Virus record (IMG/VR): IMGVR_UViG_2609459804_000005
Length of the DNA stretch: 10,008 nt
Source of the DNA: a virus
Taxonomy: Duplodnaviria; Heunggongvirae; Uroviricota; Caudoviricetes
Strand: one strand, 5' to 3'
This document shows positions 8,912 through 9,987 of the stretch, piece after piece (position 1 is the first letter of the stretch; every line of letters begins with the position of its first letter). A program made the position numbers and the translations under genes. Below the pieces are notes generated by a model that was given only the letters and a program-made list of their open reading frames with translations, searched no databases and was not told the DNA's origin.

Positions 8912-9163
8912 TTAAAACAAAGAACCAGCAATACCACCTATGACAGCACCAATAGCCGCACCGGGGAGACCACCAACGGCAGCGCCCATAGCCGCCCCCG
9001 TACCAATGCCCGTACCGATATTCTGCTTGTTCTGCGCTTTCTGTTGCGCCGCCATCTGCTTGTTAGCAGCCTCAATTTCTTCACGTCGCCTGTCGGCGTC
9101 ACTTATTCCCTGTAATGCCTCTCGACGTGACTGATTCGCAATATCCAGTAAACCGTATCCCAT
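8912..9163 (-). CDS. Small 83-aa protein: polar charged helix plus C-terminal glycine-zipper hydrophobic segment (predicted membrane-associated)
   Basis: ATG at 9163-9161 preceded by a strong SD, AAGGAGG (GGAGG = 9172-9168), immediately after the upstream gene's TAA (9175-9173). C-terminus GTGIGTGAAMGAAVGGLPGAAIGAVIGGIAGSLF has repeated GxxxG/GxxxA spacing. Confidence 0.75.
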   Translation of the reverse strand: MGYGLLDIANQSRREALQGISDADRRREEIEAANKQMAAQQKAQNKQNIGTGIGTGAAMGAAVGGLPGAAIGAVIGGIAGSLF

Positions 9164-9172
9164 ATTTCCTCC

Positions 9173-9619
9173 TTAAGCTGACACCAGTTGTCCGCCAACA
9201 CTCAGTTGCTGTCTTGCAGGTGCAGAAGCCCCCGTCAGTATGTTCATCTGACGATCCTGCTCTGCTTCACGGATACCATTTTTCGCGCCAGCAATTGCCA
9301 GGGCATTACGTAACCCCAGCGTATTACTGTTGGGATTATCAGGTCGGTTAACGCCATATCGTGCCATCTGGTTATCCTGCGCCATCTGCGCTGTACGGAG
9401 ACTGGAAGTGGCAAGGCCACCTACCCGGGCAAGCTGTGCATTCATCAGGCTGTTGTTCTCACCAAGGTCAGCCAGCCTTGCCACGCGGGGCAAATATCTG
9501 GTTCGCCAGTCGTCGTATTGCTGGCGTGTCAGCGCGGCGGATGTCTGCCAGTCACCCTGTGGGCGGGCTGCGCCTGAATAACCAGCCCTTGCGAGAGTTT
9601 CGTATTTGCCATACTCCAT
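9173..9619 (-). CDS. Hypothetical 148-aa protein
   Basis: ATG at 9619-9617, 2 nt after the upstream TAA (9624-9622); GGAG at 9632-9629 with a 9-nt spacer, inside the upstream gene's 3' end. Hydrophilic, Arg/Ala/Gln-rich, no motif I recognise. Confidence 0.7.
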   Translation of the reverse strand: MEYGKYETLARAGYSGAARPQGDWQTSAALTRQQYDDWRTRYLPRVARLADLGENNSLMNAQLARVGGLATSSLRTAQMAQDNQMARYGVNRPDNPNSNTLGLRNALAIAGAKNGIREAEQDRQMNILTGASAPARQQLSVGGQLVSA

Positions 9620-9621
9620 AA

Positions 9622-9987
9622 TTACAGTCTCCAGTTCTGAGCCTGATGCTGAATAGCATTAGCGCCGGTGCCTGGCGTTTTAGCGCCGCCACCACCTCCG
9701 TTACCGCCAGCCTTATGCATCGCGTACGCACCTACAGCTCCCAGACCAGCGCCAACAAGAGAAGCTCGCCCCTGTTGTTTCGTAAACGCCGCCTGTGCAT
9801 CCGATTTGGCTTTTGCCAGACTGCTGTCAGCCAGGGAGTTAAAACTCTGTAACGCATCTGCCTTCTGACCGGAACCGAGAGCCGCAACATCCTGTAGCCC
9901 GGCAATATATTTATCTGCCTGCGATACCTGCCCCCGTGTGGTCGTGTCAATCTGCCCGATCACCTGGTCGCTTTGATTTGCATCCAT
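9622..9987 (-). CDS. Small 121-aa protein with a Gly-rich hydrophobic segment (glycine-zipper-like); may extend upstream beyond the window end
   Basis: ATG at 9987-9985, but no SD upstream and the frame stays open to the window edge (10008), so the true start may lie outside. Contains SLVGAGLGAVGAYAMHKAGGNGGGGGAKTPGTG. Confidence 0.55.
   Translation of the reverse strand: MDANQSDQVIGQIDTTTRGQVSQADKYIAGLQDVAALGSGQKADALQSFNSLADSSLAKAKSDAQAAFTKQQGRASLVGAGLGAVGAYAMHKAGGNGGGGGAKTPGTGANAIQHQAQNWRL

Follow-up and report, generated by a model that had tools for sequence, protein, structure and literature searches.

The 10,008-nt stretch of virus DNA considered here (IMG/VR record IMGVR_UViG_2609459804_000005; Duplodnaviria; Heunggongvirae; Uroviricota; Caudoviricetes), called the window below, carries two small genes, for proteins of 83 and about 218 amino acids (aa), whose products are probably internal virion proteins (ejection or pilot proteins) of a podophage of the 933W/phi24B type. 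They belong to a five-gene cassette, the other members of which encode proteins of 148, 420 and about 2800 aa, and together these proteins would form a conduit across the host envelope. The block most likely encodes particle-borne proteins that are ejected to build a channel for DNA entry. Shiga toxin genes are spread by short-tailed Shiga toxin (Stx) phages, and the question touched upon is how these podophages bring their DNA, along with a polyvalent protein of ~2800 aa, across the envelope. Podovirus ejection proteins are already known as a kind, and the giant protein, gp47 of phage phi24B, has previously been proposed as one. Relative to the literature reviewed, what is new is the placing of the small, hitherto unannotated genes that precede the giant gene in the ejection cassette, the recognition of a family of 83-aa proteins that is linked to gp7 of phage P22, the natural fusions between cassette members, and the correction of the widespread 'bacteriocin' label of the 83-aa protein.

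The 83-aa gene (8912..9163, minus strand) is a homologue of phi24B gp49, falls in PHROG 594 and is labelled 'bacteriocin' in RefSeq. The sequence-only reading had described its product as a polar helix followed by a glycine-zipper tail, and this is borne out: the open reading frame (ORF) is real and the GxxxG spacing is verified. Glycines occupy residues 52, 56, 60, 64, 68, 72, 76 and 80, giving seven consecutive GxxxG and six overlapping GxxxGxxxG motifs, and the count of six was matched in 4 of 100,000 shuffles of the whole protein and in 24 of 100,000 shuffles of the tail only. The tail (residues 50-83, at 8915..9016, minus strand) reads GTGIGTGAAMGAAVGG-LP-GAAIGAVIGGIAGSLF, two half-segments flanking a conserved Pro in the manner of a hairpin, and ends in SLF. 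The C-terminal 34 residues are uncharged, with a best 19-residue Kyte-Doolittle mean of 1.71. Where a transmembrane glycine zipper is defined as (G/A/S)xxxGxxxG within an uncharged hydrophobic stretch, the 83-aa protein qualifies, with all six of its overlapping motifs. Codon differences from three relatives are synonymous in 15-16 cases and non-synonymous in 6, and the frame is therefore under purifying selection; synonymous differences likewise dominate in the adjoining 148-aa gene. Judged by these codon differences, both ORFs are real, constrained genes.

A word-indexed search finds 198 members of the 83-aa family, mostly in prophages of E. coli and Aeromonas, almost all of them named 'bacteriocin' or nothing, and in an exhaustive HMMER search 352 clusters at 50% identity reach E<=1e-3. 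Among the 148 representatives listed, 129 are 70-100 aa long. GxxxGxxxG is present in every one of these 129, a Pro lies within the tail in 126, and the last residue is Phe in 92, mostly as xLF or xIF; an uncharged tail of 29-37 residues is conserved across them. The residues invariant in a 35-sequence alignment are M1, G2, Y3, G4, D7, R13, E31, N34, G50, G52, G56, G68, G72, G76, L82 and F83. As read from these alignments, the family design is a conserved MGYGLLD N-terminus, a polar helix, two glycine-zipper halves around a Pro, and a terminal SLF. Pfam Gly-zipper_YMGG is matched by 23 of 35 family members, and the 83-aa protein has weak PHROG matches to Gly-rich segments of tape-measure proteins.

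The setting of the gene points to the virion. Over positions 7600-10008, 186 phage records match at 89-95% identity, nearly all of them from Stx-converting, short-tailed phages (933W, VT2-Sakai, phi24B-like, ArgO145; Sepvirinae). Among 5426 complete E. coli genomes, 426 have prophages that match the whole window, the best at 96% identity, and the top locus in IMG/VR stands at 97.6% identity. All long ORFs of the window lie on the minus strand, and by its matches the window is identified as the end of the late structural operon of a 933W/phi24B-like podophage. The order of genes in annotated relatives is tail fibres, lom, small genes, the 217-218-aa gene, the 148-aa gene, the 83-aa ('bacteriocin') gene, the 420-aa gene, and lastly a giant gene for a protein of 2789-2793 aa, annotated with an 'LPD38 domain', which closes the prophage. 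A tightly packed block with the 148-aa gene in its middle had been noted from the start, and is confirmed by the minus-strand ORFs at 9622-9987 (and beyond), 9173-9619 and 8912-9163. The intergenic gaps are 2, 9 and 10 nt, and Shine-Dalgarno sequences of the GGAG type adjoin the preceding stop codons. The block had also been placed just upstream of the giant gene, which is incorrect, as the 420-aa gene (7639..8901, minus strand) and a terminator-like hairpin intervene.

Gene order is retained far beyond the close relatives. In 71 of the 77 IMG/VR loci that were collected via the 420-aa (gp48) family, the gp51, gp50, gp49 and gp48 families follow each other in this order and are succeeded by an ORF of >1900 aa that runs off the locus. 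The order is kept down to 24-35% identity of gp48, and is found also in Aeromonas phage phiARM81mr, in Vibrio phage douglas 12A4 and in a divergent Logan contig, in all three of which the Gly-zipper protein is recognisable. The cassette thus has the traits of podovirus ejection genes, namely a place in the late structural operon, beside genes for other internal proteins and in conserved order. Natural fusions join gp50 to gp49 (148::83) in representatives P0398, P0368 and P0401 (E values of 6e-10 to 2.5e-6 with hidden Markov models, HMMs) and gp49 to gp48 (83::420) in P0281 (E=1e-43). Given the shared order and the fusions of the 148-, 83- and 420-aa families, it follows that these proteins act together. 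The 148::83 fusion proteins are 209-257 aa long, about the size of P22 gp7 (229 aa); P0296 is listed alongside these four among the fusion-related representatives.

Direct evidence from particles is available for phi24B, in a preprint that describes cryo-electron microscopy (cryo-EM) and proteomics of purified virions (bioRxiv 10.64898/2026.04.10.717836). The giant gp47, gp48 (421 aa), gp50 (148 aa) and gp51 were found to be abundant in virions, at an estimated 20-70 copies or so per particle, all four are missing from the cryo-EM structural model, and the authors propose gp47 as an encapsidated ejection protein (bioRxiv 10.64898/2026.04.10.717836). From gp49, the homologue of the 83-aa protein, the peptide EALQGISDADR was recorded with 6 counts in the batch digest and 13 in total, the batch count being equal to that of the known 12-copy adaptor, gp62 (bioRxiv 10.64898/2026.04.10.717836). 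The 83-aa protein offers only three or four tryptic peptides that are suited to mass spectrometry. On this literature, gp51, gp50, gp48 and gp47 are clearly in the virion but not resolved in its structure, while the presence of gp49, seen as a single low-count peptide, is suggestive but weak.

A further link to ejection proteins comes from the tail of the 83-aa protein, which is like the C-terminus of P22 gp7. The stretch of gp7 that the family matches comprises about its last 75 residues (…PWGAAIGxGxGLLGSLF). P22 gp7 ends in ...AIGGGASGAIAGAGLAKLIGSSTPWGAAIGGGIGLLGSLF, and several family representatives end in ...GGPWGAAIGAGIGLLGSLLG or ...GPWGAAIGAGVGLLGSMLF. A PWGAxIGxGxG motif is common to the family and to gp7, and its Pro stands 17-18 residues from the C-terminus in 63 of the 68 motif-bearing representatives (17 in gp7). 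Ten of 35 family members match Pfam P22_gp7 (PF25688) at E<=0.01, the best at 8.8e-5, in alignments that run from residue 14-23 of the member to its last residue and from position 161-170 of the profile to its end (230 of 230). The window's own 83-aa protein gave no P22_gp7 match at E<=1 in a Pfam scan. Aligned by hhalign with P22 gp7, the family gives E=2.3e-5 and a probability of 76% over 44-83 versus 186-229, both C-termini being reached. With an HMM made from the 129 representatives, gp7 reaches 21.4 bits in P22, 25.4 in Sf6, 19.7 in ST64T and 19.2 in APSE-1. The P22 score of 21.4 was reached by none of 3000 full shuffles of the P22 gp7 tail (maximum 12.6) and by none of 3000 shuffles that preserved the positions of Gly and Pro (maximum 19.9).

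The family accordingly displays the gp7-type C-terminal arrangement, a polar helix and a zipper tail ending in ...GSLF, and lacks any region corresponding to the N-terminal ~150 residues of gp7, which include the leader cleaved by OpdA. From these similarities, the 83-aa protein looks like a free-standing version of the C-terminal module of gp7. A weak alignment also exists between the N-terminus of the 218-aa family and gp7 residues 23-99 (E=7e-4, probability 26%), residue 23 being about the OpdA-processed N-terminus. The 148-aa and 420-aa families show no significant profile similarity to P22 gp7 and gp20, and searches of the PDB with single sequences and profiles of all four proteins (218-, 148-, 83- and 420-aa) returned nothing significant. 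The order of the genes in P22 is 14, 7, 20, 16.

The second small protein is only partly contained in the window. The ORF at 9622..10008 (minus strand) holds the C-terminal 128 codons of a gene for about 218 aa, a homologue of phi24B gp51 (PHROG 611) that is cut by the window edge. It had been taken for a complete gene of 121 aa, a length that derives from an internal ATG at 9987 in the ORF list, while the frame stays open to 10008. Full-length homologues are 217-218 aa long (218 residues in ArgO145), the fragment corresponds to positions 97-218 (of 218) in PHROG 611, and 444 homologues of the family were found. The Gly/Ala hydrophobic segment (9718..9765, minus strand), ASLVGAGLGAVGAYAM, spans about 14-16 residues and has a best 19-residue Kyte-Doolittle mean of 0.94; neither in length nor in hydrophobicity does it suffice for a classical membrane span. 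With a single GxxxG and no GxxxGxxxG, it also falls outside the definition of a glycine zipper given above. In 22 diverse homologues, G176 and G180 are invariant and Y185 is conserved in at least 90%, within a motif GLVGxxxGAxxAYG. The poly-Gly after the segment, GGNGGGGG, is not conserved among homologues, the C-terminal tails of which vary, and a Pfam scan of the family gave no matches. For the short GxxxG helix, a role in oligomerisation or as an interfacial element is likelier than one in spanning a membrane.

The proposal that both small proteins share one design, polar helix plus glycine zipper, finds no clear support, the 218-aa protein being truncated by the window and having only the short GxxxG helix. 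What stands of the original observation is the 83-aa gene, its zipper and the tight packing of the block; the completeness of the '121-aa' gene, its zipper, and the adjacency to the giant gene do not. Nor is there detectable paralogy in a pairwise comparison of the 83-aa and 218-aa proteins (BLASTP E=14). When the two families are compared profile to profile, residues 8-59 of the 83-aa proteins pair with residues 131-182 of the 218-aa proteins (E=4.4e-4, probability 34%), a stretch comprising the polar helix and the start of the Gly segment, which is no more than a hint of distant paralogy.

Under the favoured reading, the cassette proteins would be synthesised in the late phase of infection and enclosed in the head, would be expelled after adsorption through the short tail, ahead of the DNA, and would then assemble a conduit across the envelope. 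The hairpin of the 83-aa protein may pack helix-to-helix into an oligomer and insert into the host membrane, where it would form or anchor a channel for DNA and the giant protein, the 148-aa and 420-aa proteins probably being its partners in a single functional unit. The 218-aa protein would be a further all-helical, conformationally plastic internal protein, the GxxxG helix of which serves for packing rather than for spanning the bilayer. Gene structure, conservation of the families, synteny, the fusions and the similarity to gp7 are shown, whereas ejection and channel formation are inferred, as is membrane insertion or pore formation, which motif and analogy suggest. Among the original suggestions were a place for the small proteins in the virion and a conduit serving the large protein, and these agree with the strict synteny, the proteomics of phi24B virions and the gp7-like tail of the 83-aa protein. 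Two parts of that interpretation fare less well: the two proteins do not clearly have a design in common, and families, which inspection could not name, can be assigned after all (PHROG 594, 596 and 611, with P22_gp7 matched below threshold).

A bolder variant would see the 83-aa family as a minimal autonomous membrane-breaching module, separated from a gp7-like ancestor, which together with the 148-aa and 420-aa proteins makes a pore that threads the ~2800-aa polyvalent effector and the DNA into the cell. It is a speculative idea, with rather little chance of being right. The receptor of phi24B-type phages is BamA, and the invariant C-terminal ...SLF might engage envelope machinery. If the variant is true, the module would be a general, portable device for protein translocation used by hundreds of prophage lineages.

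Several observations weigh against an ejection role for the two proteins, or against the evidence used in its favour. A simple Hessa-scale sum for the 19-residue span of the 83-aa protein is unfavourable (+4.2 kcal/mol), owing to its many glycines. AlphaFold2 models with family alignments are all-helical for both the 83-aa monomer and the 218-aa protein and are of low confidence (predicted local distance difference test, pLDDT, of 56 and 47, respectively), which is in keeping with plastic internal proteins and is no proof of them. The scores with P22_gp7 are 16-18 bits, below the gathering threshold of 28, and the 83-aa proteins do not qualify as whole-protein members of PF25688. With a mixed alignment of seven distant gp7 homologues the link weakens to E=0.027, because the C-terminal half is missing from three of the seven. 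The tail region is of low complexity, and the likeness to gp7 may be due to convergence. Two frameshifts in the giant gene (see below) mean that the copy in the window may come from a defective prophage. Finally, the detection of gp49 in phi24B virions consists of one peptide with low counts, and the authors, going by the functional annotation as a bacteriocin homologue, count the protein among the contaminants (bioRxiv 10.64898/2026.04.10.717836). The label has in this way led a virion proteomics study to discard the homologue of the 83-aa protein.

The packing of soluble helices is driven by GxxxG too, and the zipper could accordingly hold together a soluble oligomeric core without any entry into a membrane, the two proteins then residing in the head or core, where they would help with packaging, scaffolding or organising the giant protein. 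Such proteins would equally be found in virions and be missing from the cryo-EM model, the Hessa-scale sum disfavours insertion, the segment of the 218-aa protein is too short for a bilayer, and in T7 a small core protein, gp6.7, does share in core assembly (PMC11784390). This explanation is nevertheless unlikely, in view of the uncharged 29-37-residue tail kept in 129 cluster representatives, the resemblance of that tail to that of P22 gp7, which is an ejected protein, and to the Gly-zipper_YMGG family (E=4.5e-6), and the fact that the equivalent small proteins of N4 and T7 enter membranes. A different proposal is that the small proteins are expressed from the prophage and act in the envelope of the lysogen, as a moron, a superinfection-exclusion factor or a toxin. 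Roles of this type are frequent among small hydrophobic phage proteins, and lom and hok/gef lie a few genes upstream in relatives, but no promoter-like site precedes the genes (the only one in 2.6 kb is inside the 420-aa gene, with 2.0 expected by chance), coupling to the structural genes is tight, the cassette is conserved across phage lineages with different morons, and homologues are detected in virions, all of which makes it very unlikely.

That the 83-aa protein is a bacteriocin or microcin, as stated by RefSeq/PGAP and several phage records, has almost nothing to commend it beyond those annotations and weak matches that are confined to the Gly-rich tail (Bacteriocin_IIc, E=1.1e-3; MccV, E=0.3; E492 microcin, E=0.034). 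The matches lie below the curated cut-offs of PF10439, PF17508 and NF051486 (19.3 vs 27.1, 12.1 vs 27 and 14.7 vs 50 bits), and the N-terminus, MGYGLLDIANQSRRE, contains, on reading, neither a double-glycine leader nor a signal peptide. The gene sits inside a late structural operon with gaps of 9-10 nt on both sides, no immunity or export genes are nearby, the neighbours are virion genes, and the protein is strictly syntenic with virion proteins and fused to its neighbours in some genomes. Membership among the class II bacteriocins and microcins is thus rejected on score, leader and neighbouring genes, and the label, resting on sub-threshold, low-complexity similarity, is unsupported. Two other candidate labels were considered for the protein and rejected. 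For a lipoprotein of the OsmB/SlyB type (PF13441, Gly-zipper_YMGG), the score is 26.7 bits against a threshold of 28.9 (E=4.5e-6), and there is no Cys and no hydrophobic N-terminus or signal peptide; some close homologues carry a precomputed PF13441 label. A holin was dismissed likewise, on grounds of leader, context and threshold.

Of the remaining cassette genes, the 148-aa gene (9173..9619, minus strand) is a homologue of phi24B gp50 (PHROG 596), and its product is a virion protein in phi24B and has no membrane segment. The 420-aa gene, a homologue of phi24B gp48 (PHROG 601), has the position and the rough size of P22 gp20. Near the N-terminus its product carries a conserved GFAQGLLAGF motif (8866..8895, minus strand), of the form GxxxGxxxG, in which G11 and F12 are invariant. 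The N-terminus of P22 gp20 (L085:1070-2485) reads similarly, with GGFLAGIG ... and LGLIRE versus LGLRE/D; the profile comparison is below significance. In relatives, a Hok/Gef-family toxin gene and lom are situated between the tail-fibre genes and the cassette (L007:12341-12481, L001:11804-11944, beyond the window), these morons being inserted directly upstream of the latter.

Between the 420-aa gene and the giant gene is a hairpin resembling an intrinsic terminator (7567..7593, minus strand; GCCCGAC-N6-GTCGGGC followed by U7), which directly precedes the ribosome-binding site of the giant gene. It is part of the centroid fold and is conserved in relatives, with a compensatory change from A-U to G-C in Stx2 phage 86. 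A possible effect of the hairpin is that the giant gene is expressed less; alternatively, in the absence of Q antitermination, it could shield that gene from moron promoters upstream. The giant polyvalent-protein gene itself (1..7554, minus strand; homologue of phi24B gp47, LPD38 in RefSeq) runs off the window and is split by two 1-nt deletions. In a tblastn search with the ArgO145 protein, aa 1-1314 are found in frame -1, 1314-1771 in frame -3 and 1773-2524 in frame -2. Relative to the intact gene of E. coli NCTC9112, one base is missing near 3622 and one near 2254, in both cases outside long homopolymers, and the split reflects either a decaying prophage or sequencing error. Compared with the same gene there are also in-frame 6-nt insertions at about 4909 and 5854, located at short tandem repeats (CACCGG CACCGG CACC and GGCTGT GGCTGT), which suggests length variation driven by slippage in the Pro/Val/Glu-rich linkers of the giant protein. 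For mutational work on the 83-aa protein, the conserved positions offer concrete targets: G68, G72, G76, the central Pro and the C-terminal SLF.

Podophages, whose tails are too short to reach across the envelope, bridge it with a channel made of internal proteins that they eject. Those like T7 gp14, about 200 aa long, have hydrophobic helices and go into the outer membrane; those of middle size make a tube in the periplasm, and the largest extends to the inner membrane (PMC8954989). N4 has a comparable cassette of gp52 (150 aa), gp51 (644 aa) and the giant gp50 (the 3500-aa virion RNA polymerase, vRNAP), the two smaller proteins of which make channels in lipid bilayers (PMC13434306). As in T7 (gp14/gp15/gp16, plus gp6.7) and N4 (gp52/gp51/gp50), neighbouring late genes here specify internal proteins that range from small through medium to very large, hydrophobic helices occur in the small ones, the giant protein, last in the series, is packed into the head, and the proteins are invisible in symmetric reconstructions (here by the phi24B data). 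The differences are that T7 and N4 have three such genes rather than five, that no sequence similarity was detected, and that the giant protein is a polyvalent protein of the LPD/MuF type instead of an RNA polymerase or a lytic transglycosylase fusion. As a glycine-zipper module, with continuous GxxxG and an uncharged helical hairpin, the 83-aa protein compares with the Gly-zipper_YMGG/OmpA/Omp lipoproteins, with tape-measure proteins and with the N-terminus of the T6SS effector Tde1, whose zipper permeabilises the inner membrane, carries cargo across it and resembles those of tape-measure proteins (PMC10240207). It differs from these in having no lipobox, signal peptide or Cys, and in standing alone behind a family-specific MGYGLLD... 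N-terminus, with no lipoprotein, toxin or tape-measure domain attached.

The closest parallel is with P22 and Sf6. In P22, K+ release and DNA injection need all three ejection proteins (E-proteins), and gp7 is believed to make up the portion of the conduit nearest the virion (PMC10461980). The 83-aa protein and gp7 have in common a polar Gln/Ala-rich helix, then a glycine zipper in two parts with a Pro at its centre, and an exact C-terminus of ...GLLGSLF or ...IAGSLF. Both are encoded directly upstream of the gene for a mid-sized E-protein (gp20 in P22, the 420-aa protein here), and gp7 is a virion protein, as one peptide suggests for phi24B gp49, the homologue of the 83-aa protein. In contrast to the 229-aa gp7, the protein is only 83 aa long and has no OpdA-processed leader, and separate proteins of 148 aa (sometimes fused to the 83-aa protein) and 218 aa are encoded upstream of it.

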